This document shows, in pieces, positions 193 through 39,957 of a stretch of DNA of 64,000 nt. This stretch comes from Alphaproteobacteria bacterium (GTDB taxonomy: Bacteria; Pseudomonadota; Alphaproteobacteria; Micavibrionales; Micavibrionaceae). The stretch covers positions 60,016-124,015 of the forward strand of contig JAGNKE010000004.1 of assembly GCA_018000295.1 (NCBI GenBank). The letters are read 5' to 3'. Each line of letters begins with the position of its first letter. Within the stretch, counting starts at the first letter, position 1. The position numbers were made by a program, and so were the translations under genes. The notes under the pieces were generated by a model. That model did no database searches and was not told the DNA's origin. It saw only the letters and a program-made list of their open reading frames with translations.

Positions 193-390
193 ATGGCAAA
201 AACCGGACCCGTGGAATATCTGCGTCAGGTCAGAAACGAAATGAAAAAAGTCACCTGGCCGTCCCGTCAGGAAACAACGGTCAGTATGATTGCGGTTTTT
301 ATTATGGTTTTTTTGGCATCGACCTTTCTCTTTTTTGCTGACCAAATCATCGCTTATCTGGTCCGCACAATTATGAGCATCGGGCTTTAA
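193..390 (+). CDS. secE: Preprotein translocase subunit SecE
   Basis: 65 aa ORF with one C-terminal TM helix and the motif EMKKVTWPSRQE typical of SecE. A GAGGAAG RBS lies just upstream, and the gene directly precedes nusG as in the canonical operon. Confidence 0.85.
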   Translation: MAKTGPVEYLRQVRNEMKKVTWPSRQETTVSMIAVFIMVFLASTFLFFADQIIAYLVRTIMSIGL

Positions 391-408
391 AGGAAAAGGA
401 TAAAGACA

Positions 409-942
409 ATGGCTAAACGCTGGTACGTTCTTCACGTTTATTCAGGTTTTGAAGCAAAGGTGGCCGAAGCCATCCGCGAAAAGGCAAAAAAACAGGGTCT
501 TGAGGACAAGATTGAGGAAATTCTTGTTCCGATGGAGGAGGTCGTCGAGGTGCGCCGCGGGCAGAAAGTTAGCGCCGAGCGCAAATTTTTCCCCGGCTAT
601 GTACTGGCGCGTTTGGATATGGACGATAACGTCTGGCACCTGATTAAAAACACACCCAAAGTCAGTGGCTTTCTGGGCGCAGGCGGCAATAAACCTGTCC
701 CGATCAGCGAAGCTGAGGCCCAAAGAATTTTAAGGCAGGTTCAGGAAGGGATCGAGCGTCCGCGTCCGTCGGTCATCTACGATATCGGCGAGGAGGTCAA
801 GGTGACCGAAGGCCCATTCGCCTCCTTCAACGGCTTTGTGGAAGAAATCGACGAGGAAAAGGCCAAGCTAAAGGTTTCTGTTTCAATCTTCGGTCGCGCC
901 ACCCCGGTGGAATTGGAGTTCAGCCAGGTCGAGAAGCTCTGA
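409..942 (+). CDS. nusG: Transcription termination/antitermination factor NusG
   Basis: 177 aa. The N-terminus RWYVLHVYSGFE is an NGN domain and GPFASFNGFVEEID is a C-terminal KOW motif. Its position after secE fits. Confidence 0.95.
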   Translation: MAKRWYVLHVYSGFEAKVAEAIREKAKKQGLEDKIEEILVPMEEVVEVRRGQKVSAERKFFPGYVLARLDMDDNVWHLIKNTPKVSGFLGAGGNKPVPISEAEAQRILRQVQEGIERPRPSVIYDIGEEVKVTEGPFASFNGFVEEIDEEKAKLKVSVSIFGRATPVELEFSQVEKL

Positions 943-945
943 GGC

Positions 946-1926
946 TTAACGGGCTTTATCCTTAAAAAACGCCCAAACCTCTTCGGCGGTCTCGAAATCC
1001 TTGTTCTGGCGACCCACGATGAGTAGGAAAAGCGCTCGGTAATGGTGCTTAAGGCTTGGCTCCGTGTGGCCACCGCCAATGACCTTTATCAGAGCCACGG
1101 GCGCTGGCCCGAAATACAAATATTTCCTTGCTGTGGTGCCGTCTTCCGGATCGTGGTCCGAAAAGTCTGTAATGACCGGACGGGGATCGGCACCGTTATT
1201 TATTACCCACCATGCAACGGAATTCTCGACCGACAAAACGGTCCCTCTGTGCTTTTGTTTGGCTTCTTTTGCAACGCGCCCACCTTCGTATGGTAGCAAA
1301 GGATCCTCAGTGCCATTGATAAAAAGTACAGGAACAGGCTTTTTTAAGAATTCACACGCGCTGAATTGAGGCATAGCCGCCGCCACTGGGGAGATCGCAG
1401 CAACTATTTCTGGAGCTTCCAAGGCTACGCGCAGGGACATATGCCCCCCATTGGAAGTTCCGGTTACATAAATTCTTTTGGCATCAACATTTTTCTCACG
1501 GATCAAAGTATGAATGAGCAGTTTGATGAAGCCAAGATCATCGGAATGTGTCTTAGATGATTTGTCCTTACGACAGTCGTTCCAGTCCTTAAATCTACCA
1601 GCGCTGACAAGCCCGTTCGGTATGGCAACGATAAATCTTTCGCGACGGGCCAGGTCCAGCCAGGTACGGTTTGGATTATTATCATTCATAATTTTTTGCA
1701 CACTGCCCGTATAACCGTGAAGGACAATAACGAGTGGACGCTTTGCTTCGATGTTTGGATATGGGTCGTAAAGATCATAGGTGCGCTCGATCCCTCCGGA
1801 AATAAGCCCTATATTATTGGTGTAGTCCTTAAGATCAAACGCACGGACCGGAGGAAAGGCCGTAACTAGGAACAGAAAAAGGCAAAAAACCCCGACCGCG
1901 ACACTTCTGAAAATAAAAGGCTTCAT
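946..1926 (-). CDS. Secreted alpha/beta-hydrolase esterase (PHB-depolymerase/LpqC-like family)
   Basis: The ORF track gives 946..1944. I prefer the Met7 start at 1926, which yields the signal peptide MKPFIFRSVAVGVFCLFLFLVTAFPPVRA. Motifs are VIVLHGYTGS and the nucleophile elbow GTSNGG (GxSxG). GC is visibly lower than in the flanking genes. Confidence 0.7.
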   Translation of the reverse strand: MKPFIFRSVAVGVFCLFLFLVTAFPPVRAFDLKDYTNNIGLISGGIERTYDLYDPYPNIEAKRPLVIVLHGYTGSVQKIMNDNNPNRTWLDLARRERFIVAIPNGLVSAGRFKDWNDCRKDKSSKTHSDDLGFIKLLIHTLIREKNVDAKRIYVTGTSNGGHMSLRVALEAPEIVAAISPVAAAMPQFSACEFLKKPVPVLFINGTEDPLLPYEGGRVAKEAKQKHRGTVLSVENSVAWWVINNGADPRPVITDFSDHDPEDGTTARKYLYFGPAPVALIKVIGGGHTEPSLKHHYRALFLLIVGRQNKDFETAEEVWAFFKDKAR

Positions 1927-1931
1927 GAATT

Positions 1932-2129
1932 CTAGGCGCTCCACATAATCTTGAACTGCTCGGGCTTCAAGACAAGTTGTACGAGAGTGTTTCCGACCCT
2001 GTCCAGAAATTCAACGGTGCAGGAGGGCTCAGGCTGTTCATGGACGGCGACGATAAACCCGTGCTTGCCGCTGACCAACCCGTATTCCGGGAGATCGATC
2101 GAAAGCGTGATGACATCGTCTTTTTTCAT
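1932..2129 (-). CDS. DUF4926-like small protein
   Basis: 65 aa. The pattern D-V-I-T-L..DLPEYGL..G..G.IV....EP...VEFLD..GNT......L...Q matches my memory of the DUF4926 family consensus. Its stop lies 5 nt upstream of the esterase start on the same strand. Confidence 0.55.
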   Translation of the reverse strand: MKKDDVITLSIDLPEYGLVSGKHGFIVAVHEQPEPSCTVEFLDRVGNTLVQLVLKPEQFKIMWSA

Positions 2130-2229
2130 GGAGCCCTTTTGGGTTCAGGTTTCTTATGCCCGCGTTCCCTCTATAGTCCAGCAATCGTTTTGCGGCAAGG
2201 GAAGGGGGCAATAGAGGTTAATTTTTTTC

Positions 2230-3497: not shown

Positions 3498-3523
3498 GTC
3501 GCACTAAAGCCGAACAGTTTTTA

Positions 3524-3557
3524 AGAAGCCCGGAAAAAATCCGGGCTTCTTTATTTT
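3524..3557 (+). terminator. Rho-independent terminator after rplA
   Basis: A 10-bp perfect stem AGAAGCCCGG / CCGGGCTTCT with a 7-nt loop, followed by TTATTTT. Confidence 0.8.
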
Positions 3558-3640
3558 GGCTCTTGTCAAAGACAAAAGATGTGATTAAGAGTCATTCTCA
3601 ATAAAGAGTAACTCTTACTATCATCAGGGAGCACAAGTTG

Positions 3641-4765
3641 ATGTACCGCAAAATGACCCTTTTATCCTGTGTTGCCATTACACTCTTCAGCCCGTCTCAG
3701 GCTAAGGCTGAAGGGTACATTCTGCAAAATCTGGTCGCAAACCGGCAGATTTATATGCCCGAAATCGTCGATCCGCAGATGGTCAACGCCTGGGGTCTGG
3801 CGATCCGTCCGGCGGGAGCGGGGGGTCATTTCTGGATCAATAACACCGATACAGGAACGGTCAGCCTTTATGTTGGCGATGTGGGCGGGAAAAAGCTCTT
3901 TCAGGATGATGTCAAGCGGATCACTCTGCCCGCCGCGGACCCGAAGGCCGAGCATTCCACTCCGACGGGGCAGGTCTTTAACGGCGTCGAGACGGAGTTC
4001 GTGGTGACGCATGATGGCATCACCGGCCCCAGCAAGTTCATATTCTGCACCGAAGACGGCACGATCATCGGCTGGACTGAAAAAAAGAATGACGATGGAA
4101 CTTTTATTCGTCCCTCTCATGGCGTGATTGCCGTCGATCAATCTAAGCAGGGAGCGATTTACAAGGGGATAACCGTTTCCGTCAACCGCGAAGGCGGAAA
4201 CCGACTTTATGCGGTGGACTTCGCCAACAACCGCGTCGATATATTCGATTCCTCATTTAAACCTTTGAAGATCGAAGGAGCATTCGCACATCCAGCCGGA
4301 GTTCCCTCCGATCACGCGCCCTTCAACGTGCAGGAGCTGGGCGGTATCCTCTATATAACCTATGCCAGACTGACAAAGGAACCCGGCGAGGAAGAGCAGG
4401 GCACCGGGCTGGGCTATCTTGCGGCCTTTGACTATGAAGGCAAGCTGATCCGCGAGTTCGAGGGCAGAAAAGATCTCGACGCCCCTTGGGGGCTGGCGAT
4501 TGCGACAGCAGACTTCGGTCAGGCGTCCGGCCGTCTGCTGGTCGGGAACTTCGGCAACGGCAAGATCGTGACATTTGATCTGGAAAGCGGCAAGCAGGCA
4601 GGCGTTTTGAAACGGCCAGATGGCAACCCGCTAGAAGTCGAGGGACTTTGGGGCATATTGTTCGGAAATGGTCAAAGCCTTGGCGATGCCAACGCACTCT
4701 ACTACGCCGCCGGCCCTGCCGAAGAAGCGGACGGAGTCTTCGGTAAAATCGTCTGGACTCCCTAA
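3641..4765 (+). CDS. TIGR03118-family secreted beta-propeller-like protein
   Basis: 374 aa counted from the ATG at 3641 (the track starts at the TTG at 3638). The signal peptide ends SQAKA. The motifs NLV....D..MVNAWGLAIRP..GGHFWINN, LYITYA, APWGLAIA..FG...G.LLVGNFGNGKI, GLWGILFGNG and YYAAGP...DGVFGKI match my memory of TIGR03118 proteins. Confidence 0.7.
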   Translation: MYRKMTLLSCVAITLFSPSQAKAEGYILQNLVANRQIYMPEIVDPQMVNAWGLAIRPAGAGGHFWINNTDTGTVSLYVGDVGGKKLFQDDVKRITLPAADPKAEHSTPTGQVFNGVETEFVVTHDGITGPSKFIFCTEDGTIIGWTEKKNDDGTFIRPSHGVIAVDQSKQGAIYKGITVSVNREGGNRLYAVDFANNRVDIFDSSFKPLKIEGAFAHPAGVPSDHAPFNVQELGGILYITYARLTKEPGEEEQGTGLGYLAAFDYEGKLIREFEGRKDLDAPWGLAIATADFGQASGRLLVGNFGNGKIVTFDLESGKQAGVLKRPDGNPLEVEGLWGILFGNGQSLGDANALYYAAGPAEEADGVFGKIVWTP

Positions 4766-5001
4766 AATTATACAGAAAACCCTTGACGGGCAGGTTTTCC
4801 TTCTATAGACCTGCCCGTAGTTTACAAAAACCTGTCAGGGACTGCAGGGGCTGAAGCTTAAAAAGCCTGCACAGATAGGAAGAATAAAAAGCCAATCCTA
4901 ATATCTAAGGCCGCTTTTGTTCTTTCAGACTGATCCCCGCAGGCGGCCAAAAGGCCGCTTTAGTTTTTTGGGAATTTAACTTTGATCGTGGAGACAAAAC
5001 C
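4766..5001 (+). promoter_or_regulatory. rplJ 5' leader with terminator-like hairpin (4941-4970) and a competing upstream pairing partner
   Basis: A GCGGCC-AAAA-GGCCGC hairpin followed by TTTAGTTTTTT lies 30 nt before the rplJ start. A second GGCCGC copy at 4909-4914 could pair with the same GCGGCC. This fits an L10-leader type attenuator. Confidence 0.45.
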
Positions 5002-5520
5002 ATGGGCATGAGCCGGGCAGAAAAGAACGAGGAAATCGTGGCGCTGAACCAGCGCTTTAACGAGGAAGAGCTTGTGGTCGTCACCCAGTATTCCGGTCTA
5101 ACCGTTAAGGAGCTCACCGACCTGCGGAACGAACTCCGCAAGAACGGTGCAAAATTCAAGGTTATTAAAAACCGCCTCGCACAGCGCGCCCTGAAAGGGA
5201 CGAAGTTCGAGAAGCTGGAGGATATGTTCGCCGGCCCGACCGGCATCGCCACCTCAAAAGACCCTGTGGCCGCCGCGAAAGTAACATTTGAATTCGCCAA
5301 GAAAAACCAGAAGCTGATTATCGTTGGCGCGGGCATGGGCGAAACGGTTCTCGATCCCAAGGGCGTGGAAGCGCTGGCCAAACTGCCGAGCCTTGACGAA
5401 ATCCGCTCCAGGCTGGTGGGTCTTCTGGTGGCGGCCCCGACCAAGCTGGCGGGAGTTCTGCAGGCTCCGGCCCGCGATCTGGTAGGTGTAACAAAGGCTT
5501 ACGGCGAGAAACAAGTTTAG
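5002..5520 (+). CDS. rplJ: 50S ribosomal protein uL10
   Basis: 172 aa in the conserved position upstream of rplL, with sequence typical of uL10 (e.g. VVVTQYSGLTVKELTDLR). The start could be Met1 or Met3. Confidence 0.94.
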   Translation: MGMSRAEKNEEIVALNQRFNEEELVVVTQYSGLTVKELTDLRNELRKNGAKFKVIKNRLAQRALKGTKFEKLEDMFAGPTGIATSKDPVAAAKVTFEFAKKNQKLIIVGAGMGETVLDPKGVEALAKLPSLDEIRSRLVGLLVAAPTKLAGVLQAPARDLVGVTKAYGEKQV

Positions 5521-5568
5521 TTTTAATTTTCAGAGAAATGATCAAGTTTAAATTCTAAGGAGGAAAAA

Positions 5569-5946
5569 ATGGCTGCTGATCTGAATAAAATTGTTGAACA
5601 ACTCTCGACCTTGACGGTTCTGGAGGCTGCGGAACTATCCAAGCTTCTCGAAGACAAGTGGGGTGTAACCGCTGCTGCGGCTGCTCCTGTCATGATGGCA
5701 GCGGCCGGACCTGGCGCGGCTCCTGTCGAAGAGAAGGACAGCTTCAATGTCGTTCTCGTTGACGGCGGCGCTAACAAGATCAACGTGATCAAGGAAGTCC
5801 GCGCAATCACCAGCCTCGGCCTGAAAGAAGCCAAGGATCTGGTCGAAGCGGGCGGCAAGACCGTTAAGGAAGGCGTCAAAAAGCCCGAGGCCGAGGAAAT
5901 CAAGAAGAAACTCGAAGCCGCCGGTGCCAAAGTCGAGCTGAAATAA
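5569..5946 (+). CDS. rplL: 50S ribosomal protein bL12
   Basis: 125 aa with an Ala/Pro-rich hinge ([18 protein letters not shown]) and the C-terminal domain KEAKDLVE...[13 protein letters not shown]. Confidence 0.97.
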
Positions 5947-6128
5947 TCTTCGCCTGAAACATCAAGCATTTCCCGCATGACTTTAAGGGTGTGGGAAATG
6001 CTAATATTTCATGGAATGAAGGTTGACAAACAGCAAAACGATGGTCCATATAGCTTACAAAATTTCTGAGACAGACGTGAAACCCGTACGCGTAACGGAT
6101 TCCGCTTTGCGGAAAAACTAGGGATTTG

Positions 6129-6174
6129 AACCTGTTACCCTGATATTGAAGGGGCAACAGGTTGTTTTTGTTTG
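6129..6174 (+). terminator. Attenuator-type hairpin plus T-run in the rplL-rpoB spacer
   Basis: The stem AACCTGTTACCC / GGGGCAACAGGTT (8+3 bp with one mismatch) has a 10-nt loop and is followed by GTTTTTGTTTG. It lies 43 nt before the rpoB start, and a partial terminator is classically found at this position. Confidence 0.55.
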
Positions 6175-6216
6175 CTTGATTAGCAACTTTTGGAATTTTT
6201 TAAAAGGTGAGAAGAA

Positions 6217-9200
6217 ATGAGCGCAGCCAAGACCTCAAGAGCAGTAACGCAGGCCAACGATATCAGCAGCTTTACCGGCCGCAAGAGGATCCGGCGCAAT
6301 TTCGGGCGTATCCGTGAAGTGGCCCAGATGCCTAACCTCATCGAGGTGCAGCGCAATTCCTACGAACTGTTCCTTCAGAAGGACGTTCGTGCCGAAGACC
6401 GTGCACTACGCGGCCTGCAGGAGGTCTTCTCCTCCGTCTTCCCGATCAAGGATTTCAGCGACCGTGCGGAAATCGACTTCGTAAAATTCGAATTCGAAGA
6501 TCCCAAATACGATGTGGATGAGTGTCAGCAGCGGGGGATGACTTACGCCGCCCCACTGCGCGTGACCTTGCGCCTCTCGGTCTTTGATGTGGATCCTGAT
6601 TCGGGCCTCCGTTCGATTCGGGACATCAAGGAGCAGGACGTCTATATGGTCGATATGCCCCAGATGACCAATAACGGAACCTTTGTCGTAAACGGCACGG
6701 AGCGGGTTATCGTCTCCCAGATGCACCGTTCCCCGGGCGTCTTCTTCGACCATGACAACGGCAAGACACACGTTTCCGGTAAATACCTCTTCTCGGCTCG
6801 TGTCATCCCCTACCGCGGCTCATGGCTCGATTTCGAATTCGATGCCAAGGACATCATGTTTGTCCGTATCGACCGTCGCCGCAAGCTGCCATTAACCACT
6901 CTGCTACGCTGTCTGGACAGCGCGGAAACCGAAAAACTCCGCAAAAAAGCGGAAGATAAAGGCGAAGAGCTGGATCCTTTGCTGGTTCAGGGGATGTCCA
7001 ATGAGGAAATCCTGAAGACATTCTACGATGTGATTGTCTACGAACAGGACAAAAAGGGCTGGCGCACGGCTTTCAACCCGGACAGGGTGCGCGGAATCAA
7101 GCTGAATTACGATCTGATCAACGCAAAAACCGGACGCACTGTCGCCAAGGCCGGGGAAAAGATTACCGCACGTGCGGCCAAGAAACTGGCCGAGGCCGGA
7201 TTGGAGGAAGTCCGCGTCGAAAGCGAAAATCTCGTCGGCAACTTCCTCGCCGTTGATATCTTTGACCAAAAAACCGGACTGGTTCTCTTCGAGGCCGGCC
7301 ATGAAATCGCGCAGGAAGATTTTGCCAAACTTGAGGAACTGGGAGTCAGCGAAATTCCTGTTCTGTCCATCGACTTCCTCAATGTTGGACCCTATATCCG
7401 CAATACGCTGCTGGCCGACAAGTGCGACACCCGTGAAGCCGCGCTGGTGGATATCTACCGCGTTATGCGACCCGGCGAACCCCCGACAGTGGAATCCGCC
7501 GAGGCGCTCTTCCAATCGCTCTTCTTCGATGCCGAGCGCTACGACCTGTCGTCCGTCGGTCGCGTCAAAATGAACGCCCGCTTGGATATTCAGGCGGATG
7601 ATCAGTTTCGCGTCCTCAGTAAGGCCGACATTCTGGCGATTGTAAAATACCTCCACGGCCTGAAGGACGGTCGCGGCGAGGTGGACGACATCGACAACCT
7701 CGGCAACCGCCGGGTCCGCTCGGTCGGCGAACTCATGGAAAATCAGATGCGTATTGGTCTTCTCCGCATGGAGCGGGCGATCCGCGAACGGATGTCCTCC
7801 GTGGATATCGACACCTATATGCCCCACGACCTGATCAACTCCAAACCGGCCCAGGCCGCCGTGCGCGAGTTTTTCGGCTCATCCCAGCTTTCCCAGTTTA
7901 TGGATCAGACCAACCCGCTCTCGGAAATCACGCACAAACGCCGCCTCTCCGCCCTTGGCCCCGGTGGTCTGACCCGTGAGCGCGCAGGCTTCGAAGTCCG
8001 TGACGTGCACCCGACCCATTACGGCCGGATATGTCCAATCGAAACGCCCGAAGGCCCGAATATTGGTCTGATCAACTCTCTGGCGACCTTTGCCCGCGTC
8101 AATAAATACGGTTTTATCGAAAGTCCTTACCGCAAGGTCTCCAAGGGCAAAGTAACGGACGAGGTTATTTATATGTCCGCCATGGAGGAAGCCAAGTACG
8201 TCATCGCACAGGCCAACTCCGTGCTCGATAAGTCGGGCAAGTTTGAAAGCGAACTCGTCTCCTGTCGTCAGGCTGGGGAGAACATCATGTCCCAGCCCGA
8301 AACGATCGAATATATTGACGTTTCGCCCAAGCAGATCGTCTCTGTCGCGGCCTCGTTGATCCCGTTCCTGGAGAACGACGACGCGAACCGCGCCCTCATG
8401 GGATCGAACATGATGCGTCAGGCCGTTCCGCTGCTGCGCTCGGCCGCCCCGATCGTCGGCACAGGCATGGAAGCAACAGTTGCGCGGGATTCCGGCGCCG
8501 CCGTCTCTGCCCGCCGCGCCGGTATTGTGACGAAAGTGGACGCGACACGGATCGTCGTTCAGGCAACCGAGTTTGAAAATGCTGACGATCCTGTGGTGGA
8601 TATCTACAAACTCTCCAAATTCCAGCGATCAAACCAGAACACCTGCATCAACCAGCGCCCGCTTGTAAAAGTCGGCGACGAGGTCAAGGCGGGCGATATC
8701 GTGGCGGACGGTCCTTCGACCGACCTCGGCGAACTCGCTCTGGGCCGCAACGTTCTCGTGGCGTTCATGCCTTGGAACGGTTATAACTTCGAGGACTCCA
8801 TCCTCATCTCCGAGCGCATCGTTAGCGACGACGTCTTCACCTCGATCCATATCGAGGAATTCGAGGTCATGGCCCGCGACACCAAGCTGGGAACCGAAGA
8901 AATCACCCGCGACATCCCCAACGTCGGCGAAGAGGCGCTCAAGCACCTTGACGAGGCGGGAATCGTGCACATCGGCGCCGAAGTCGCCCCCGGCGATATT
9001 CTGGTCGGTAAGGTGACACCCAAGGGCGAAAGCCCGATGACACCGGAGGAAAAACTCCTCCGTGCCATTTTCGGCGAGAAAGCTGCGGACGTGAAGGATA
9101 CCTCCCTGCGCCTGCCGCCCGGAGCCATCGGAACAATTGTCGAAGTCCGCGTCTTCAACCGCCGCGGCGTCGATAAGGATGCTCGAGCGCTTTCTATCGA

Positions 9201-11233: not shown

Positions 11234-15445
<4,212 letters not shown>

Positions 15446-29629: not shown

Positions 29630-29645
29630 GTAGGAGGATTGAACG

Positions 29646-30044: not shown

Positions 30045-30085
30045 AAAGATCGGCGAAAACAGAAGCTTGATTGAGGAAAAGAGAA

Positions 30086-30646: not shown

Positions 30647-30655
30647 GGAAAAGTC

Positions 30656-31051
30656 ATGGCCAAGGCAGCATCCAGGAAACTCAAGCCCGCAGATCGCCGT
30701 ACGTTCCGTACGCGTAACAAGATCCGCAGGGTCAATATCGAGCAGAACAGCAAACGCGAGGTGCGCCCGCGCCTCTCCGTTTTCCGCTCGGGGAAACAGA
30801 TTTACGCTCAGGTTATCGACGACATTGGCGGCAAGACTCTGGCTTCGGCCTCCACTCTCGATAAGGAGTTGAAGGAAAAGCTGAAGAACGGAGCCAATAA
30901 GGATGCAGCCGTTGAAGTCGGAAAGCTCGTTGCCGAACGTGCAAAAAAGGCGGGCGTCAGCAAGGTTGTTTTCGACCGCGGACCCTACCTCTACCACGGT
31001 CGGGTGAAGGCATTGGCTGAAGGGGCACGCGAAGGCGGACTGGAATTTTAA
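30656..31051 (+). CDS. rplR: 50S ribosomal protein uL18
   Basis: 131 aa in the conserved position, ending [19 protein letters not shown]. Confidence 0.93.
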
Positions 31052-31070
31052 TCAAAAGGAAAAATGAAAT

Positions 31071-31634
31071 ATGGCACGTGCGTTTGAAAAGCAGAATCAA
31101 AACGAGGAACCCGAATTCATCGAGCGTTTGGTGGGTATCAACCGCGTGGCGAAAGTCGTAAAGGGCGGTCGTCGTTTTGCTTTCTCCGCGCTTGTAATCG
31201 TTGGCGACGGCAAGGGCCGTGTCGGCCACGGTCACGGCAAGGCCAAAGAAGTGCCCGAGGCGATCCGCAAGGCCACCGATCAGGCCCGCCGCAACATGAT
31301 CCGCGTTCCTCTTCGCGAAGGCCGCACTGTCCACCATGATGTGACGGGTACCGACGGCGCAGGCAAGGTCCACCTCCGCTCCGCTCCGCAGGGTACGGGA
31401 ATCATCGCCGGCGGCCCTATGCGCGCCGTGTTCGAGGCTCTAGGAATTCAGGACGTCGTCGCCAAGGCCATCGGCTCCAGCAACCCCTATAACATGGTGA
31501 ACGCGACCTTCGATGCGCTGAAGAAAATTCAGAGTCCGCGACATGTGGCGGCCCGCCGCAACAAGAAGGTCAGCGAAGTCGTCTCCAACCGCGAGATTCA
31601 GTCCAGCGATTCGCCCGAAGGATCCGAGGAATAA
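31071..31634 (+). CDS. rpsE: 30S ribosomal protein uS5
   Basis: 187 aa with motifs [14 protein letters not shown] and GTGIIAGG. Confidence 0.95.
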
Positions 31635-31667
31635 TATAGTAGGTTTATACGATTAAGGATTTGAACA

Positions 31668-31961
31668 ATGGCAGAAGAGACAAAAAAGGCAAAAAAACCT
31701 GCAGCGGAAAAGAAAGCTTCTCCGGCAAAAAAGGTGGCAGCCCCCAAAGAGTCTAAGGCGAAGAAACCTTCGCCTTCCGGAAAGACAGTTCGCGTCACGC
31801 AGATTGGCTCTCCAATCGGCCGCAAGGCTTACCAGCGCGCAACGCTGATCGGTCTCGGCCTGAACAAGCTGAACCGCACCAAGGAACTCGAAGACACACC
31901 CTCCGTGCGCGGCATGATCGCCAAGGTTAACCATCTGGTAAAGGTTGAGGACATCGCCTGA
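31668..31961 (+). CDS. rpmD: 50S ribosomal protein uL30 (with Lys-rich N-terminal extension)
   Basis: 97 aa. The core [32 protein letters not shown] is preceded by a K/A/P-rich segment of about 38 aa. Confidence 0.88.
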
Positions 31962-31996
31962 ACCTGCAGAAACAAAAAAATTAAGGAAAAACTATT

Positions 31997-32503
31997 ATGA
32001 AACTCAATACGCTAAAGCCGAGCGAAGGCTCAAAAAAAGTAAGAACCCGCCTCGGACGCGGTATTGGCTCCGGCAAGGGTAAAACCTCAGGGCGCGGAGT
32101 CAAGGGCCAGAAGGCCCGTACAGGCGTAGCCATAAAGGGCTTCGAGGGCGGCCAGATGCCGCTCTATCAGCGTATGCCCAAAATAGGTTTCCGTAACACT
32201 GCATTCGCAACCAAGTTGGTCGAACTGACCCTCGAAAACCTCCAGGAGGCGATTGACACCAAGAAACTAGACCCCAAAAAGCCGATTGATGAAGAAACGC
32301 TTGTTAAGGCGGGCGTGGTCAGCCGCAAGCGTGACGGGATCAAGTTGCTGGCAACCGGAACCCTGTCAGCGAAAGTTGATCTCAAACTGACCAAGGCCTC
32401 AAAAGCCGCTCAGGCTGCGGTGGAAAAGGCCGGAGGCAGCATTGAATTAGCTCCGGAAAAGCCGGCTAATCCAAAAAAATTGCCTAAAAAGGCAAAGAAG
32501 TAA
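31997..32503 (+). CDS. rplO: 50S ribosomal protein uL15
   Basis: 168 aa. The sequence [14 protein letters not shown]...[19 protein letters not shown] is typical of uL15. Confidence 0.93.
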
Positions 32504-32525: not shown

Positions 32526-32560
32526 AAGCCCTTCCCCTAAAGGAAGGGCTTTTTCTTTTT
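32526..32560 (+). terminator. Rho-independent terminator immediately after rplO
   Basis: A 10-bp perfect stem AAGCCCTTCC / GGAAGGGCTT with a 6-nt loop, followed by TTTTCTTTTT. Confidence 0.8.
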
Positions 32561-32625
32561 GACATATTTTCCAAGCCCGATTAGTCTGTTAGCAGTATTT
32601 TCTGACCGTTAGGGGCTAAATCATT

Positions 32626-33474
32626 ATGCGTCGCTTGTTGCCACTTATTCCCTTGTGTTTACTGGTTTTCGTCATCTTTGTAGGCCAGGCGCAGGCGCAA
32701 TCCTGCCCCCGCTCCAACCCCGAAACCGAAGTAAAAAAAATAACATTAAAGACCAAATATTACCGCGGAACATCTGCTTGGTACTTAACGGCATGGACCG
32801 GTCACTGGGGCAAGGGTGTTGTCCTTGGGCTTCATACGGGTAAGGACGGAAATGCCCCTTTTTGGGCAGACTATGATGCCAAATTTGAGTTCACGCCTGT
32901 GCGCAACAACCCCAACGCGGTTTGTGTAAGTGTATCAAAAATAAAAATGAAGTTTTACATTCAGCCTGTAGTGCATATCGCATCCGAGTATCCTCAGGAA
33001 AGTTGTGAATTCAGGGAGGTTCTGAGGCATGAAAAAAAACACGTAAAGGTGACAAAGGAATGGCAGAAGGAATTCACCCCGCAGTTGCGTCGGGAGTTGA
33101 GAAGCATAGCTCATAAGATTCCGGCTTCTTCGCCAGTAGGAGAGCGCCAGATCCCGGCAACACAGCAAATGATGATGAACATAATTAAATCTCACCTGGA
33201 AAAATTTATGGAAAAAAAGGCGGTTCCTACCTTAGTTCGTCGCCAAGGAAAAGTTGATGACCCCTTGGAATATAAGTTGGTGCCGGAACGTTGCGAAAAC
33301 TGGCAAGATTACCATATTACAGCCTATGAGCCAGGGTATGAAAAAGATGACTCCGATGATAAGGGGGAGGGAGATGATGGAGACGAAGACGATTCTTCCG
33401 ACGATGACTCAGAATCAGATAATAATGATGATACCGGTGAAATTGGTGACCTTCCGGACTACGGAGCCAACTGA
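32626..33474 (+). CDS. Secreted HExxH protein, putative Zn-metallopeptidase (DUF922/COG5661-like), with a poly-acidic tail
   Basis: 282 aa. The signal peptide ends QAQA. The motif VLRHEKKHV (HExxH) follows a conserved Cys. It is clearly paralogous to the next ORF, and its C-terminal 47 aa are D/E/S-rich. Confidence 0.5.
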   Translation: MRRLLPLIPLCLLVFVIFVGQAQAQSCPRSNPETEVKKITLKTKYYRGTSAWYLTAWTGHWGKGVVLGLHTGKDGNAPFWADYDAKFEFTPVRNNPNAVCVSVSKIKMKFYIQPVVHIASEYPQESCEFREVLRHEKKHVKVTKEWQKEFTPQLRRELRSIAHKIPASSPVGERQIPATQQMMMNIIKSHLEKFMEKKAVPTLVRRQGKVDDPLEYKLVPERCENWQDYHITAYEPGYEKDDSDDKGEGDDGDEDDSSDDDSESDNNDDTGEIGDLPDYGAN

Positions 33475-33491
33475 TTCTTGTCTTTCCTTAA

Positions 33492-34217
33492 ATGCCCAGA
33501 AGTTTTTATAAAACAGTTAGTGCTATAAAAAGAACAGGTGTATTTCTTGTTTACGTACTTCTGATGTCAACATCAGCTAATGCTGGCGAGTTAGTTGACA
33601 AATGTCCTGTTTCACGCCCCGAGACGTTTCTAAAATCAAGGATTGCCGGTGCAGAGGTAACAAAAACAAAATCCGCCGTCGATATGACGGAATGGCAGCT
33701 TGGCCACAGCATGGCTCCAAGTGGTGGTCAGATTCTGGGGTTGGGTGGCGGGGAAATTGAAACTAGCTACAATGCGGAATTCGAAGTCTCTCCCTTCCAG
33801 ACCGGGTATTGCGTAGTTCTTCATGAAATCCGAGCGAAATTCATTGCAAAACCTCAAATACACGTTGCCAGCAATTTCGAGGAGGGGAGTTGCGAATACA
33901 GCGAGGTTCTCTTCCACGAGCAAAAGCACATAGAGGCACTTCGCCTTTTTCACCGAAAGCAGACTAAAAATCTAAGGGCAAAGCTGAGAGAAGTGTCAAA
34001 AGCAATCCCCGCTGTTAAGCCAGTCCCGCAAGAGGAGGTAAAGCGGATACAGAAAAAGCTTCTCCAGTATGTTCAGGTAGAGATGAATGGCTATTTTCAG
34101 GAAATTCTGAAAGAACTTCAGCAAACCCAGCAAAAAATCGACAGTCCCGAGGAATATCAGCGCGTGGCTAAAAAATGCCGGAAATGGGAACAAAAACTCT
34201 CGAAACAGCCGGATTGA
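33492..34217 (+). CDS. Secreted HExxH protein, paralogue of 32626..33474
   Basis: 241 aa with a signal peptide ending ANAGE. It shares these blocks with the upstream ORF: CP.S.PET, A.FE..P, SCE..EVL.HE.KH, IPA..PV and D.P.EY..V...C..W. Confidence 0.5.
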   Translation: MPRSFYKTVSAIKRTGVFLVYVLLMSTSANAGELVDKCPVSRPETFLKSRIAGAEVTKTKSAVDMTEWQLGHSMAPSGGQILGLGGGEIETSYNAEFEVSPFQTGYCVVLHEIRAKFIAKPQIHVASNFEEGSCEYSEVLFHEQKHIEALRLFHRKQTKNLRAKLREVSKAIPAVKPVPQEEVKRIQKKLLQYVQVEMNGYFQEILKELQQTQQKIDSPEEYQRVAKKCRKWEQKLSKQPD

Positions 34218-34323
34218 ACGCAAAGACTCTTAGCGGACAACCGCGAATCCGCTCTTGTGTCCCGGGAATCTTTTCATTATGACTGATTGACTGTTTTTTA
34301 AGAACCAAGAAAGAGAATAAGCG

Positions 34324-35679
34324 ATGGCATCGGCCGCTGAGCAACTCGCACGCAACGCCAACTGGGGCGCACTGGCAAAAGCCACGGAGCTAAAAAAGCG
34401 GATATATTTTGTCCTCGGTGCCCTTCTGGTGTACCGATTAGGAACCTATATTCCCGTTCCGGGGATCGATATCCGGGTCTGGGAGGAGATTTTCTCGCAA
34501 AAGGGCGGCGGAATTCTGGACATGTTCAATATGTTCTCCGGCGGTGCCTTGCAGCGGATGACGATCTTTGCTCTTAACATCATGCCCTATATCTCGGCCT
34601 CGATTATCATGCAGTTGGCCTCCTCGCTCTTCAAAGGCCTTGAAGAATTGAAAAAGGAAGGTGAACTGGGCCGGATGAAGATTAACCAGTACACGCGATA
34701 CTTGACGGTTCTTTTGGCCACCGTTCAGGCTTATGGCTTGGCGGTGGGTCTGGAATCGATGCAGGGACAGGCCGGCTCGGCTGTGCTCGACCCTGGGATG
34801 TTTTTCCGTATCTCCACAGTCATTACGATCGTCGGTGGCACGGTCTTCCTGATGTGGCTGGGCGAACAGATTACCCAGCGAGGAGTAGGGAATGGAACAT
34901 CCCTGATAATCTTCGCTGGGATCGTTGCCGAATTGCCTCGCGCCCTCGGCAGCACTTTGGAACTGGGACGGCAGGGAACGATCAGTCCGGCCGTGCTTCT
35001 GCTCCTCGCGGTCATGGTTGTGGCCGTCATTGGCCTGATCGTCTTCATGGAGCGCGCCCAGCGCCGGATCGTGGTCCAGTACCCGAAACGCCAGGTGGGC
35101 AATCGCATGACGGGGGGAGAGACAAACCACATCCCCTTGAAACTCAATACTTCAGGCGTGATCCCCCCGATTTTCGCGTCCTCTCTGCTGCTTCTGCCCC
35201 TCACGATTATTAAATTCGCAGGGGTCAATGGCGGAGATTTCTGGGCGGATGTCGAGCGTTACCTCGCCCACGGTCAACCGATCTACATGGCCCTGTTTGG
35301 TTCGCTGATTATTTTCTTTGCTTTTTTCTATACCGCGATTGTCTTCAATCCCGAGGAAAACGCGGAGACTCTCCGCAAATACGGTGGATTTGTTCCCGGT
35401 ATGCGTCCGGGTAAGAACACCGCAGACTATTTCGATTATGTCCTGACCCGAATCACGACGGTTGGCTCTCTTTATCTGGTCTTTATCTGCCTCCTGCCGG
35501 AGTTTATGGTATCGCAATACAGCGTCCCCTTCTATTTCGGTGGAACCAGTCTGCTAATCGTGGTCAGTGTCACCATGGATACGGTCGCGCAGATTCATTC
35601 GCATCTGATCGCCCATCAGTACGAGGGGCTGATTAAAAAGGCGAAGCTAGGGAATCGCGGCGGTGGACGCCGTAGGTAG
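34324..35679 (+). CDS. secY: Preprotein translocase subunit SecY
   Basis: 451 aa, polytopic, with motifs GALQRMTIFALNIMPYISASII and GGTSLLIVV. Confidence 0.97.
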   Translation: MASAAEQLARNANWGALAKATELKKRIYFVLGALLVYRLGTYIPVPGIDIRVWEEIFSQKGGGILDMFNMFSGGALQRMTIFALNIMPYISASIIMQLASSLFKGLEELKKEGELGRMKINQYTRYLTVLLATVQAYGLAVGLESMQGQAGSAVLDPGMFFRISTVITIVGGTVFLMWLGEQITQRGVGNGTSLIIFAGIVAELPRALGSTLELGRQGTISPAVLLLLAVMVVAVIGLIVFMERAQRRIVVQYPKRQVGNRMTGGETNHIPLKLNTSGVIPPIFASSLLLLPLTIIKFAGVNGGDFWADVERYLAHGQPIYMALFGSLIIFFAFFYTAIVFNPEENAETLRKYGGFVPGMRPGKNTADYFDYVLTRITTVGSLYLVFICLLPEFMVSQYSVPFYFGGTSLLIVVSVTMDTVAQIHSHLIAHQYEGLIKKAKLGNRGGGRRR

Positions 35680-35718
35680 AAAAGCTGAAAAGCCCGCATA
35701 GCAAGAGGAGCATGAGAT

Positions 35719-36309
35719 ATGAACATCATCATTTTCGGACCGCCCGGAGCAGGAAAAGGTACACAAGCCGCCAGAATCCAGACCGAGCACGGTCTCAAGC
35801 ATCTCTCGACGGGCGATATGCTGCGCGGCGAGGTCGCCCGGAAATCCGACCTCGGCCTCAAGCTCAAATCGATCATGGACGCTGGCCAGCTCGTCTCCGA
35901 CGATATCATGATCGAACTGATCGGCAACTGCGTCAGCGAACCTGACTGCGAAAAGGGCTTTATCCTTGATGGCTTCCCCCGCACGGTTCCGCAGGCGCAG
36001 GCGCTCGATGATACTCTACGCCATATGGCCCGTAAGGTGGATCATGTACTGGTGCTCGAAGTGGACGAAAAGGCCCTCCTTGACCGTATCCGCAACCGCG
36101 CCAAGGAAACCGGCGGAGCCCGCAGTGACGATAATGAAGAAGTTCTCAAAAAGCGCCTCAGCGAATACCGCGCCAAAACAGCCCCCGTCCTGCCCTATTA
36201 CGAGCAGAAAGGTCTATTGCGTAAAATCGACGGCATGAAGCCGATTGAGGAAGTCACCGCACGCATCGAAAATTTTCTGGGATCTTCCCTTTCAAAAAAG
36301 CACGCTTGA
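35719..36309 (+). CDS. adk: Adenylate kinase (short-lid form)
   Basis: 196 aa with the P-loop GPPGAGKGTQ, the motif LSTGDMLR, and no Cys4 lid. Confidence 0.96.
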   Translation: MNIIIFGPPGAGKGTQAARIQTEHGLKHLSTGDMLRGEVARKSDLGLKLKSIMDAGQLVSDDIMIELIGNCVSEPDCEKGFILDGFPRTVPQAQALDDTLRHMARKVDHVLVLEVDEKALLDRIRNRAKETGGARSDDNEEVLKKRLSEYRAKTAPVLPYYEQKGLLRKIDGMKPIEEVTARIENFLGSSLSKKHA

Positions 36310-36321: not shown

Positions 36322-37209
36322 ATGAGTGACAATTTCGTTCTTGCCGTTCACGGCGGAGCCTTTATGAATCCTCGCGATTATTCGCAGCAAACAAACTTCA
36401 TCGAAAATTGTCTCAAATCTGGCTGGCGTGACCTGAAGGGCGGTCAATCGGCCCTCGAAGCCGTGGTCCAGGCGGTTGTCAAAATGGAAGACTCTGCCCT
36501 CTTCATCGCCGGAAAGGGCGCCGGCCCGAACTCCGAAGGCGACTATGAACTGGACGCCTCGCTGATGGAAGGCGAATCGGGAAAAGCCGGGGCTATAGCC
36601 GCCGTTCGGGGAATAAAAAACCCGATCATCGCGGCCCGCACAGTCATGGAGAAAACGCCTCACGTCCTGCTGGCGGGTCTGGGGGCGGAGCGTTTTCTGT
36701 CCGAACAGGGTTTGGAGCAGGTCAAAGACCCCGCGCACTATTTCACACCCTCCCATACGGAAAATCAGGTCATACCGCCCACGGCTCTAAGCTCCAGCCA
36801 TGGCACAGTGGGTGCGGTCGCTCTGGATCGGGACGGCAACCTCGCCGCCGCAACATCAACGGGTGGACTGGTGGGCAAGAGGGCGGGCCGGGTCGGGGAT
36901 TCGCCGATCATCGGTGCGGCAACGTGGGCGGATCGCAACCTCGCGGTATCCACCACGGGATACGGTGAATATTTTATGCGCGCCGTGGCAGCCTACGATG
37001 TCCTGGCCCGCTGTCTCTATGGAGGTAAAGCGCTCGAAGTGAGCGTTTCGGATGTATTGGACGGCATCAGAGACGCCGGAGGGTGGGGCGGACTGATCGC
37101 TCTGAACCGTAAGGGGGAAGTTTGTCTGGATTACCGCTGCGCCGGAATGCACCGCGGTTTTGTGAGGCACGATGGCGCCATTCACGCCAGAAGCCTCCCC
37201 GATATATGA
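36322..37209 (+). CDS. Isoaspartyl peptidase / L-asparaginase (Ntn hydrolase)
   Basis: 295 aa with the autoproteolysis/nucleophile motif HGTVGAVALD, plus TSTGG and GDSPIIGA. Confidence 0.85.
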   Translation: MSDNFVLAVHGGAFMNPRDYSQQTNFIENCLKSGWRDLKGGQSALEAVVQAVVKMEDSALFIAGKGAGPNSEGDYELDASLMEGESGKAGAIAAVRGIKNPIIAARTVMEKTPHVLLAGLGAERFLSEQGLEQVKDPAHYFTPSHTENQVIPPTALSSSHGTVGAVALDRDGNLAAATSTGGLVGKRAGRVGDSPIIGAATWADRNLAVSTTGYGEYFMRAVAAYDVLARCLYGGKALEVSVSDVLDGIRDAGGWGGLIALNRKGEVCLDYRCAGMHRGFVRHDGAIHARSLPDI

Positions 37210-37289: not shown

Positions 37290-37317
37290 TTGACGGAGCC
37301 TTTCGAATTCCTATAAT
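37290..37317 (+). promoter_or_regulatory. Near-consensus sigma70 promoter (TTGACG-N16-TATAAT) for rpsM-rpsK-rpoA-rplQ
   Basis: The hexamers were read directly and lie 160 nt upstream of the rpsM start. Confidence 0.65.
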
Positions 37318-37477
37318 GCGGCATCTCGAAAGGGGGCTTGCGCCTGCATAAAGGCAGCCGGAAGCTGAATGAAGTTTACAGACCGGCGCGGTGAAAGTTT
37401 AACGGACGGAGCCGTATACGGTCTGGCAAGAGCAGGAGCAAAGGGCTCCGGCTCGGAAAAATTGAAAGGAAAAGACT

Positions 37478-37858
37478 ATGGCACGTATTGCGGGGGTCAA
37501 CGTACCCGACAATAAACGCATCCCGATTGCTCTCACTTACATTCACGGCATTGGCCGCACATCGGCGCTGAAAATCTGCAAAAAGCTGGGCATTGATCTC
37601 CAGATGCGCATGGGGCAGGCTGACGAGGACACGCTCAACAGAATCCGTTCCGAAATCGAAAAGGGCGGCTTTAAGATCGAAGGCGATTTGCGCCGCGAAG
37701 TCTCCATGAATATCAAGCGCCTGATGGATATGCGCTGCTACCGGGGTCTCCGCCACCGCGCGGGTCTGCCCGTGCGCGGCCAGAGAACCATCACCAACGC
37801 ACGCACCCGCAAGGGACCGGCCAAGCCCATCGCCGGTAAGAAAATGGCGACCAAGTAA
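37478..37858 (+). CDS. rpsM: 30S ribosomal protein uS13
   Basis: 126 aa starting [14 protein letters not shown]. Confidence 0.97.
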
Positions 37859-37870
37859 AGGAGATACACA

Positions 37871-38254
37871 ATGGCTGCACCAAGAGCTAAAAGAAAAGAG
37901 AAAAAGAATATCGTTTCGGGCGTCGCGCACGTCAACTCGACATTCAACAACACGATTATCACCATCAGCGACGCCCAGGGCAACGTGGTGTCATGGTCGT
38001 CCTCAGGAACGATGGGCTTTAAAGGCTCCCGTAAATCAACCCCTTACGCGGCCCAGATGGCCGCCGAGGATGCGGGCCGCAAAGCACAGGAGCACGGCAT
38101 GAAGGAACTCGAAGTCCTCGTCAAGGGACCGGGGTCAGGCCGCGAATCCGCGCTGCGGGCATTGCAGATGGTCGGCTTCCTGATCAGGTCGATCAAGGAC
38201 GTCACGCCCGTTCCGCACAACGGCTGCCGCCCGCCCAAACGCCGCCGCGTATAA
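37871..38254 (+). CDS. rpsK: 30S ribosomal protein uS11
   Basis: 127 aa with motifs [18 protein letters not shown] and [16 protein letters not shown]. Confidence 0.97.
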
Positions 38255-38306
38255 CTGAAGCGAATTATTATTAGATCACAGGCACTTTTAACCAAAGAGC
38301 AGGAAC

Positions 38307-39326
38307 ATGTTGATACAGAAAAACTGGCAAGAACTGATTAAACCCGCGAAGCTTGAAGTCAAACCCAGCCGCCAGCCCAACACGGGTGTAGTGGTCGCTG
38401 AACCGCTCGAACGTGGCTTTGGCCTGACACTGGGCAACGCTTTGCGCCGTATACTCCTTTCATCGCTTCAGGGCGCGGCCGTCACGGCTGTCCAGATCGA
38501 GGGCGTATTGCACGAATTCTCTTCGATTGAAGGCGTGCGCGAGGACGTTACCGACATTATCCTGAACCTGAAGGCGCTCAGTGTGCGTATGCACTCCGAA
38601 GGCCCGAAAAGGATGCGCCTGTCCGCCGAAGGGCCATGTGAAGTTACCGCAGCGCAGATCGAGGCCGGGGCCGACATTGAGATCATGAACCCTGATCTTA
38701 TCATCTGCACTCTTGACAAGGGCGCAAGGCTGAACATGGAAATGACCGTGAACACTGGCAAGGGCTACCGTCCGGCATCAACGAACCGTCCGGAAGAAGC
38801 CCCTGTTGGGCTCATTCCGATCGATAGCGTCTTCTCGCCTGTCCGCAAGGTCACTTACGAAGTCACCGACACGCGCGTCGGCCAGATCACAGACTACGAC
38901 AAGCTGACCCTGACCGTAGAAACCAACGGCGTAATCAGCCCCGAAGATTCCGTAGCCTTCGCCGCCCGCATTCTTCAGGACCAACTGCAGATATTCGTAA
39001 ACTTCGATGAGCCTCAGGAAGTCAAGGAGAAATCCGAAGAGCAGGAGCTTCCCTTCAACCGCAACCTTCTCAAGAAGGTCGAAGAACTGGAACTGTCGGT
39101 CCGTAGCGCCAACTGCCTCAAGAACGACAACATCATTTACATCGGCGATCTCGTTCAGAAATCTGAGAGCGATATGCTCCGCACCCCGAACTTCGGCCGC
39201 AAATCCTTGAATGAAATCAAGGAAGTTCTGGCGCTGTTTGGTCTGCATCTCGGTATGCAGGTTGAGGGTTGGCCACCGGAGAATATCGAAGACCTCGTCC
39301 GTAAAATCGACGAGCAGCAGTTTTAA
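38307..39326 (+). CDS. rpoA: DNA-directed RNA polymerase subunit alpha
   Basis: 339 aa. It has the N-terminal domain motif [17 protein letters not shown] and the C-terminal domain motif [12 protein letters not shown]. Confidence 0.97.
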
Positions 39327-39507
39327 CCAATACTCAAGGTCGAATTCATACTTCGGCCTTGACTAGACCAAAAGGACAATGTGTCCACCCCTTCCATGAA
39401 ACGGCCCCTTTTCAAGGCAAGTGATGAAAGGAAATACCATGGCTCTTGTCCTATCCGGGGCAAGGCCGCAGCAGCCGAATAAAAACGGCAGGAAAGGAAA
39501 AGAAAAA

Positions 39508-39957
39508 ATGAGACATGGATTGAAACAGCGCAAGCTGAACCGTACCAGCAGCCACCGCAAGGCGATGCTGGCCAACATGGCTGCCGCTCTGATCAAACAT
39601 GAGCAGATTATAACGACCCTGCCGAAGGCCAAGGAACTCAAACCTTACGTCGAAAAACTAATCACCCTGGGCAAACAGGCGGCTGCGAACCCGAAAGTGG
39701 CTCTGGCCAAAAGGCGTCAGGCGATAGCGATCCTGAGGGATGCGGCGCAGGTCAGAAAACTCTTCGATGTTCTGGCCGAGCGCTATGAAGACCGCCCCGG
39801 CGGTTACACTCGCGTTCTCAAGGCCGGCTTCCGCTACGGCGATGCGGCGCCCAGAGCCGTCATTGAACTCGTGGACCGCGATCCCGAAGCAAAAGGTAAG
39901 GACTCCGGCCCTACCCAGTTCGACGATGAAATCGTCGAAGACCGGGAAACCGTTTAG
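39508..39957 (+). CDS. rplQ: 50S ribosomal protein bL17
   Basis: 149 aa from [20 protein letters not shown], the canonical bL17 N-terminus. The track ORF extends 29 codons upstream. Confidence 0.92.

Follow-up and report, generated by a model that had tools for sequence, protein, structure and literature searches.

Non-core genes at seven junctions of the secE-rplQ array in a bacterium of the Micavibrio family

The array of ribosomal protein and RNA polymerase genes that runs from secE to rplQ is a standard illustration of how selection maintains gene order, and the adjacency of rpoB and rpoC within it is treated as near-universal. Here we analyse this array in a window of 64,000 nucleotides (nt) from an alphaproteobacterial genome of 2.68 Mb and 53.8% G+C (assembly GCA_018000295.1, contig JAGNKE010000004.1, positions 60,016 to 124,015), in which nine non-core genes occupy seven junctions of the secE-rplQ block. 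We consider it probable that these genes are layered, mostly old, lineage-specific insertions into a core-gene array that is unusually well tolerant of them throughout the order. Judged from the sequence, five of the seven junctions appear to be borders between transcription units, and only two inserts, a SIMPL-family gene between rpoB and rpoC and an orphan gene between rpsJ and rplC, seem to be embedded in operons. The data show directly the positions of the inserts, their ages, the selection on them and the sequence signals around them; co-transcription, promoter use and the reason for the tolerance are what we infer from these arrangements.

Window positions 193-39957 hold the complete set of 39 core genes, arranged as is canonical for alphaproteobacteria (secE-nusG-rplKAJL-rpoBC-rpsLG-fusA-tuf-S10-spc-secY-adk-rpsMK-rpoA-rplQ). 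Matches far over the Pfam cut-offs identify 37 core products, and rpoB and rpoC are 72-99% identical to their orthologues in 40 relatives. The intact order, the seven occupied junctions and the inventory of inserts are thus as the initial annotation of this DNA had described them. The inserts are:

946..1944, minus strand: secreted alpha/beta-hydrolase (esterase), convergent with nusG; PF00326, PF02230 and PF00756 over cut-off
1932..2129, minus strand: DUF4926 small protein, overlapping the esterase start by 13 nt; PF16277, 55.2 bits against a cut-off of 29.1, E = 4.6e-15
3595..4765, plus strand: TIGR03118 secreted protein (gene 3638-4765) with its own promoter-like site (3595-3624); TIGR03118, E = 5e-120
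10474..11196, plus strand: SIMPL/DUF541 anchored protein between rpoB and rpoC; PF04402
15501..17228, minus strand: GT-C-like polytopic membrane protein of 575 amino acids (aa); homology to carriers of PF10131 or PF09586
22371..22628, plus strand: 85-aa clade-specific orphan between rpsJ and rplC; true start at 22371, not the 90-aa open reading frame (ORF) from 22356
32559..34217, plus strand: pair of HExxH paralogues, HEX1 and HEX2 (32626-33474 and 33492-34217), behind a promoter-like box (32559-32587, TTGACA-17-TAGTCT)
36322..37209, plus strand: isoaspartyl-peptidase/asparaginase-family gene, 12 nt past adk; PF01112 (Asparaginase_2), 269 bits, E = 6e-80

Age of the inserts and rarity of the interruptions

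We compared the window genome (G000) with relatives from its genus (g1), an uncultured one that belongs to the Micavibrio family (f1), and from the wider order. The genus and family labels are working labels and the order name Micavibrionales is inferred; the relatives are not mutually independent, and the genome samples are not exhaustive. A tree of rpoB and rpoC served as the species tree, with G004 basal and the remaining species grouped as (G005,(G000,G002)) and (G001,G003).

The synonymous divergence (dS) of the core flanks between species of the genus is approximately 0.7-2.8 and is essentially saturated, and eight of the nine inserts are common to species whose flanks have a dS of about 1-2. 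SIMPL and the peptidase-family gene occupy their junctions in all six genus relatives. DUF4926 is present in the five genomes in which the nusG/rplK junction is covered (G001-G005), and the HExxH pair and the orphan are present in G001, G002 and G004, which are all of the genus genomes with those junctions covered. Only basal G004 lacks the esterase and the GT-C-like gene, and TIGR03118 is confined, among the genus genomes compared, to G000, G002 and G005; the distribution of all three matches the species tree. For every insert with an estimable dS, the ratio of nonsynonymous to synonymous divergence (dN/dS) is 0.05-0.19, and purifying selection keeps all testable inserts. Since the inserts are genus-wide at saturated dS, we regard most of them as an old trait and reject a recent burst of insertion. 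The initial annotation had held that inserts shared by close and distant relatives would speak for an old lineage trait rather than an insertion hot spot. Alignment to the relatives gives a divided answer: the whole genus carries the inserts, and other genera lack them at these junctions.

To place the window in a wider frame, we located the 39 core genes in the corresponding region of other genomes and counted the junctions that measure 400 nt or more:

Window genome: 6, plus the 300-nt orphan junction
Genus relatives: 4-6
Micavibrio aeruginosavorus ARL-13: 5
G157: 5
G034: 4
G032: 2
G010: 1
G030: 1
Twelve alphaproteobacteria of other families: 0-1 in eleven, 4 in G227

By the standards of the class the block is thus unusual, yet it lies at the upper end of a trend in its own family. 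In G157, the interval between rplO and secY reaches 5.2 kb. G227 (loci L108-L110, G227:C1:1196001-1244000), whose rpoB/rpoC junction measures 418 nt, branches next to the order in the rpoBC tree, and its four long junctions may point to a tolerance that extends beyond the order.

The rpoB/rpoC junction was measured in two further samples, comprising 118 genomes of the order and 143 other alphaproteobacteria chosen at about one per family. The median gap is about 60 nt in the order and 71 nt in the others, and gaps of at least 400 nt occur in 18 of the 118 order genomes, spread over 13 genera, versus 3 of the 143 others. Cargo at rpoB/rpoC was present in two more genera as well, represented by G018 and G024 in the initial set of relatives. 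The cargo genes are mutually unrelated: they include an FkbM-like methyltransferase, a nucleotidyltransferase with a DUF86/HEPN-like partner, small lipoproteins, RidA-like, YciI-like and cytidine-deaminase-like genes, and small orphans. All clear cargo ORFs at rpoB/rpoC are co-directional with rpoBC, and both orientations are found at operon borders, which fits a rule that only co-directional genes survive inside an operon. Relaxed operon constraint, one of the two explanations offered by the initial annotation, is supported by these data and extends to the family and order, where other genera hold unrelated cargo at the same junctions; at rpoB/rpoC, occupation is roughly ten times as frequent as in the rest of the alphaproteobacteria. 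No account of this junction being occupied recurrently turned up in a literature search on bacterial genes inserted there.

Among this cargo, small nucleotidyltransferase genes that read as MNT-like lie co-directionally between rpoB and rpoC in two unrelated genomes (L057, G007:C7:37450-38300; L066, G265:C18:5160-6640). In G007 the DUF86/HEPN-like gene follows the nucleotidyltransferase, giving a toxin-antitoxin-like pair.

SIMPL and the orphan, two genes probably embedded in operons

The SIMPL-like gene proposed for the rpoB/rpoC junction is borne out by a PF04402 match that spans 163 of the model's 205 positions and scores 64.4 bits, the cut-off being 25.2. Its product has a hydrophobic N-terminus (hydropathy 2.38 over 12 residues), predicted to act as an export signal or anchor. 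The gene starts 24 nt past the rpoB stop codon and ends 37 nt before the rpoC ATG. A ribosome-binding site precedes each start, and a scan of the intergenic spacers found no terminator or promoter. The dN/dS is 0.09-0.14 and codon use resembles that of rpoB and rpoC.

A SIMPL homologue with 50% identity also lies between rpoB and rpoC in G157 of genus g49 (L055, G157:C1:1715700-1718200), where it is followed by NUDIX-like and GIY-YIG-like genes. The SIMPL proteins of g1 and g49 form a clade with a copy from G030 that is located elsewhere in that genome, and the SIMPL genes of other genera form a second clade, likewise located elsewhere in their genomes. Genera g1 and g49 are not sisters in the rpoB+rpoC tree, and their shared arrangement could reflect either one old insertion with several losses or two captures.

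The orphan predicted between rpsJ and rplC holds in length and place, with its start at 22371. It is separated by 26 nt from rpsJ and by 12 nt from rplC, each gene having a ribosome-binding site, and our scan around it found no intergenic terminator or promoter. The sequence is strongly constrained, with 41 of 85 positions invariant and a dN/dS of 0.09. A word-indexed search of 5.8 billion proteins returned six clusters of 84-87 aa, and a profile search of 1.84 billion representatives added five more along with one chance-level match. The four most distant relatives (43-51% identity) all lie between S10 and L3, starting 0-3 nt past the S10 stop codon in three cases and 11 nt past it in the fourth. 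On these contigs S10 is 85-90% identical to that of the window, compared with 92-95% within the genus and at most about 81% in other genera. The finding of distant relatives at the same place on contigs outside the genus indicates that the orphan is older than the genus. The gene thus sits between S10 and L3 in seven distinct lineages (the window, G001, G004 and the four distant ones), or eight with the near-identical G002, which are all the lineages whose gene context was read.

In the predicted fold of the orphan (mean predicted local distance difference test score, pLDDT, 71.5), a helix caps a sheet of five strands, and the acidic tail is disordered. Structural matches are weak and PH-domain-like (E about 0.15, template modelling score 0.5-0.6), a lead rather than a result. 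Given its fixed place and strong constraint, a role tied to expression of the S10 operon or to the translation machinery is plausible.

Both genes are co-directional with their neighbours, have short spacers and lack a terminator or promoter in between, the features expected of an embedded insert in the model of Price, Arkin and Alm (2006; PMC1480536). From the short spacers, the genes' own ribosome-binding sites and the absence of a terminator, SIMPL and the orphan would be read on the rpoBC and S10 transcripts, respectively.

Inserts at probable transcription-unit borders

The core genes and the candidate control elements around the inserts are as follows; promoters and terminators are consensus matches backed by conservation only.

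193..942, plus strand: secE-nusG; PF00584, PF02357
2340..3497, plus strand: rplK-rplA; Pfam
3523..3551, plus strand: terminator-like hairpin after rplA; 12-bp stem, then T run
4766..5001, plus strand: native rplJ promoter and leader, including a hairpin at 4941-4960; homologous to the whole rplA/rplJ spacer of the empty-site genomes G001, G003 and G004
5002..10449, plus strand: rplJ-rplL-rpoB; Pfam, orthologues
11234..15445, plus strand: rpoC; orthologues
15475..15497, no strand assigned: hairpin common to the convergent rpoC and membrane-protein gene; hairpin scan
17229..17676, no strand assigned: divergent control region with the str-operon promoter (17321-17349); TTGACA-17-TATAGT
17677..22344, plus strand: rpsL-rpsG-fusA-tuf-rpsJ; Pfam
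22641..32503, plus strand: rplC to rplO (S10 and spc genes); Pfam
26641..26863, plus strand: genus-specific non-coding spacer between rpsC and rplP with a conserved hairpin; spacer comparison
32526..32551, no strand assigned: terminator-like hairpin after rplO; strong hairpin
34255..36309, plus strand: conserved block upstream of secY, then secY-adk; block kept in G000, G001 and G004; Pfam
37290..39957, plus strand: alpha-operon promoter (37290-37317, TTGACG-16-TATAAT), then rpsM-rpsK-rpoA-rplQ; Pfam

One border insert with a promoter-like site of its own is TIGR03118 at rplA/rplJ, where the family call made earlier is confirmed at 400.5 bits against a cut-off of 79.95. The 236 nt that follow the gene are homologous to the entire spacer of the empty-site genomes, indicating that the gene dropped cleanly between two operons. 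In G005 the promoter-like box is kept, and the spacer after rplA, read by eye, has a G+C-rich hairpin and then a T run at the corresponding position. The gene has a dN/dS of 0.06, and one gain in the (G005,(G000,G002)) subclade is the simplest reading.

A similar arrangement is found at rplO/secY. The promoter-like box before the HExxH pair is kept in three species, including G001 and G004. The hairpin after rplO, with a T run, is also present in the insert-free genomes G010, G030 and G032, where a further 100-150 nt lead to secY. This shows rplO/secY to have been a unit border in the order already, and we reject the insert as the cause of the uncoupling of secY from rplO. The two paralogues, foreseen as such in the initial annotation, are 28-31% identical to each other, have a G+C content at third codon positions (GC3) of 0.45-0.48, and encode products with signal peptides and four invariant cysteines; H135, E136 and H139 are invariant in 16 sequences. 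They had no match in Pfam, NCBIfam or the PDB sequences, and a model (pLDDT 68.8) found no PDB fold by Foldseek at E <= 0.001. Assignment to a known metallopeptidase or DUF family was accordingly rejected.

At adk/rpsM, the inserted gene is followed by the alpha-operon promoter. Its product carries the autoprocessing GT motif of the N-terminal nucleophile (Ntn) hydrolase family within HGTVGAV. The earlier assignment as an isoaspartyl peptidase stands at the level of the family and not beyond it: the protein scores 216.6 bits against the 567 required by NF007589, the model for the E. coli-type IaaA equivalog, and is a family member rather than an established IaaA equivalog. Its dN/dS is 0.13-0.19. 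Searching 34 other genomes of the order at 1e-5 returned only a distant copy in G038 (37% identity), with none found in the other 33.

The remaining two junctions hold genes on the opposite strand. At nusG/rplK, the signal peptide and the GTSNG nucleophile elbow of the esterase are visible in the sequence. The alpha/beta-hydrolase models uphold the esterase call, and the protein falls under the cut-offs of the polyhydroxybutyrate (PHB) depolymerase models (TIGR01840, 60.3 bits against 107.85; NF050058, 115.8 bits against 150). GC3 is 0.50, and the orthologues in G001, G003 and G005 are 48-52% identical. DUF4926, also called correctly with PF16277 over its gathering score, has a dN/dS of 0.05-0.12; in G004 it is adjoined by a gene for a 693-aa carboxyltransferase-like protein, and rpoC/rpsL there measures 355-400 nt. 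At rpoC/rpsL, the GT-C-like protein has no direct Pfam match even at E = 10. The tentative call comes only through its 91 relatives, 25-39% identical where they bear PF10131 (PTPS_related) or PF09586 (YfhO): 30 have PF10131, five have PF09586 (two have both) and one has PF04138. YPRW and PYH motifs are conserved, and the gene has a GC3 of 0.48. Both the esterase and the GT-C-like protein evolve fast, with 47-61% identity between species versus 94% for RpoC. An ORF at 17231-17572 on the minus strand was considered as a tenth insert and rejected, its dN/dS being 0.76-1.05 and its span holding the str promoter.

In G002, a relative whose RpoC is 99% identical to that of the window genome, a 2-nt insertion near codon 203 breaks the esterase frame (L001, G002:C1, ~813000-814000). 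The two esterase genes differ at 3.3% of bases, above the neighbouring genes. The frame break may be decay to a pseudogene or a long-read indel error.

Proposed history and alternative explanations

We propose that the insertions accumulated in layers. The orphan would have entered rpsJ/rplC before the genus diverged, and DUF4926, SIMPL, the HExxH pair and the peptidase-family gene would have been fixed by the time of the genus ancestor; the esterase and the GT-C-like gene, absent only from the basal species, and TIGR03118, which would have entered one subclade, complete the series. Several routes seem to have been used. The inserts at nusG/rplK and rpoC/rpsL would be separate units on the opposite strand, those at rplA/rplJ and rplO/secY self-promoted units behind terminators, and the peptidase gene an addition to the 3' end of the secY-adk unit, before the alpha-operon promoter. 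SIMPL and the orphan would have been wedged co-directionally into the rpoBC and S10 operons.

Four points weigh against this reading or blur it. SIMPL occupies the same junction in two non-sister genera, and a simple vertical history needs several losses. Operon membership, promoter use and terminator efficiency are deduced from sequence. The apparent tolerance might reflect a general fluidity of genomes in the order. Finally, the GC3 of the four low inserts varies between species and is not a clean sign of foreign origin.

The other explanation in the initial annotation was adaptive coupling, by which inserts would be selected at this location for growth-phase transcription of envelope and secreted proteins (attachment phase in predators). 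As an account of the pattern we find it unlikely. Six of the nine products have a signal peptide or anchor (five had been counted earlier), against about 30% of genome ORFs; the trend towards exported products stands, but the enrichment is marginal (p about 0.03-0.06 in a crude test) and the HExxH pair is a single event. The rpoBC-like codon usage of SIMPL also fits coupling, and data from the predator ARL-13 point the same way: in the supplement of PMC3189940, the values for spacers by the inserted hypothetical genes GMV_2140, 2141, 2144, 2148 and 2153 are 0 in attack phase and rise to 14-62 in attachment phase, with ribosomal-protein spacers reading 18-97. These values show that a growth-phase pattern can extend to genes at such places, although the genes and the genus are not those of the window, and 80% of ARL-13 genes are transcribed in attachment phase anyway. 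Moreover, three of the inserts run antisense to the operons beside them, terminator-like hairpins insulate TIGR03118 and the HExxH pair, each of which has its own conserved promoter-like box, and the rpoB/rpoC cargo of other genera is functionally heterogeneous. Core-operon transcripts could carry only SIMPL, the orphan and the appended peptidase gene. For these three, selected coupling is possible; given the marginal enrichment, the antisense and insulated inserts, the heterogeneous cargo and the limits of the ARL-13 data, it is not an explanation of the whole pattern, and the claim that envelope and secreted functions are coupled to growth is weakly supported at best.

A hot spot of recent horizontal transfer, bringing young foreign DNA into this genome or species, is very improbable. 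It would account for the low GC3 of the esterase, the GT-C-like gene, HEX1 and HEX2 (0.45-0.50, the 3rd-7th percentile of genome ORFs), for the divergence of the first two between species and for the restriction of TIGR03118 to a subclade. The sharing of eight inserts across species with near-saturated flanks largely refutes it, and the other five inserts (SIMPL, TIGR03118, the peptidase gene, DUF4926 and the orphan) have native-like composition. The expectation that several inserts are lower in G+C therefore applies to four genes and fails for five, among them SIMPL with its rpoBC-like codons. We saw no flanking direct repeats and no tRNA genes at the inserts, and delivery by mobile elements was rejected on these grounds.

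Exchange of cargo by homologous recombination, with the conserved flanks acting as homology arms that move inserts such as SIMPL between genera, would explain why g1 and G157 both have a SIMPL gene of one subfamily at rpoB/rpoC. We give it little credence. Similarity between G000 and G157 shows no local rise where rpoB ends (3') or where rpoC begins (5') relative to six other genera, and because the two SIMPL proteins are only 50% identical, any transfer must be ancient. Assembly chimeras, raised as a caveat by the initial annotation, can practically be dismissed: every junction recurs in independent assemblies, among them G002 and G004, each assembled as one contig, and contigs from metagenomes of other samples, and nothing was found in favour of chimeras.

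The layered history favoured here has partial parallels in known systems. Price, Arkin and Alm (2006; PMC1480536) found that new operon pairs often arise by insertion of an ORFan beside a native gene, that appending at the end of an operon is common and insertion within an existing operon rare, and that ORFans are under purifying selection, with new genes expressed from native promoters. The peptidase gene after adk resembles their common appending route, and SIMPL and the orphan resemble the rare internal one. Unlike the operons of that study, which were those of E. coli and B. subtilis generally, the most conserved operons are targeted here, layers are stacked in a 40-kb array and unrelated cargo re-uses the same junctions across the order. 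The rplKAJL-rpoBC cluster has been called universally conserved, although genes separate rplKA from rplJL in Bradyrhizobium diazoefficiens and Actinomyces israelii (bioRxiv 10.1101/2025.04.14.645983). The window shares with these two species non-core genes at the rplA/rplJ operon border; in contrast to that report, which describes no gene between rpoB and rpoC, this junction is occupied genus-wide here and repeatedly across the order.

ARL-13, a member of the same family, has extra genes at nusG/rplK, rplA/rplJ, rpoC/rpsL and adk/rpsM, as does the window, and their transcription is limited to the attachment phase (PMC3189940). It differs in having rpoB and rpoC 21 nt apart (2150576-2150597), no gene between S10 and L3 and nothing in rplO/secY, and none of the nine window inserts is found at its junctions. 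These rpoB/rpoC coordinates, measured in relative G147, coincide with those of the spacer that the ARL-13 supplement gives beside GMV_2142, which identifies G147 as ARL-13 and f1 as the Micavibrio family.

The repeated breaks between rpoB and rpoC, together with nine long-kept passengers, offer a natural experiment on constraint versus history in gene order. SIMPL in rpoBC and the orphan of the S10 operon are candidates for genes that acquired core-operon expression, and for roles in predator growth or the expression machinery. More speculatively, and with a low probability in our estimate, the Micavibrionales core superoperon could be a lineage-wide landing pad in which orphan or foreign genes are domesticated via growth-phase transcription, at least one of them, the 85-aa protein that holds its place between uS10 and uL3 wherever it occurs, having become a new clade-specific partner of the translation or transcription machinery.

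Transfer hot spots, reportedly described by Oliveira, Touchon, Cury and Rocha in 2017, gather diverse accessory genes in a few intervals flanked by core genes. The array resembles them in concentrating diverse accessory genes between conserved core genes. Classical hot spots turn over within species, often with mobile elements, whereas the inserts here comprise one or two genes, are stable within the genus and differ only between genera.

An eighth interruption, of 223 nt and non-coding, lies between rpsC and rplP. This spacer measures 223-291 nt in all six genus genomes versus 43-146 nt in other genera. It contains no plus-strand ORF of at least 40 aa and no Rfam match. Some 115 nt of it form a conserved core, in which an invariant 8-bp stem, CATATGGA/TCCATGTG, encloses an inner stem that shows 2-3 compensatory changes, and a run of 7-8 T follows 7-8 nt later. 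Possible identities for the spacer are a structured RNA and an attenuator within the S10 operon. Scanning window positions 1-41000 against Rfam (E <= 0.1) returned only an Alpha_RBS-like match near the alpha operon, under the gathering score, and one chance-level match.

Two draft contigs of the genus, G003:C11 and G006:C3 (L012, L014), break off at tuf, some 5.4 kb downstream of rpoC, which a second copy of tuf that collapses in assembly could explain. Lastly, three ribosomal proteins exceed their Pfam domains: uL29 and uS17 (27472-28011) have 96 and 136 aa versus 57 and 68 model positions, and uL30 (31668-31781) has 97 aa versus 51.

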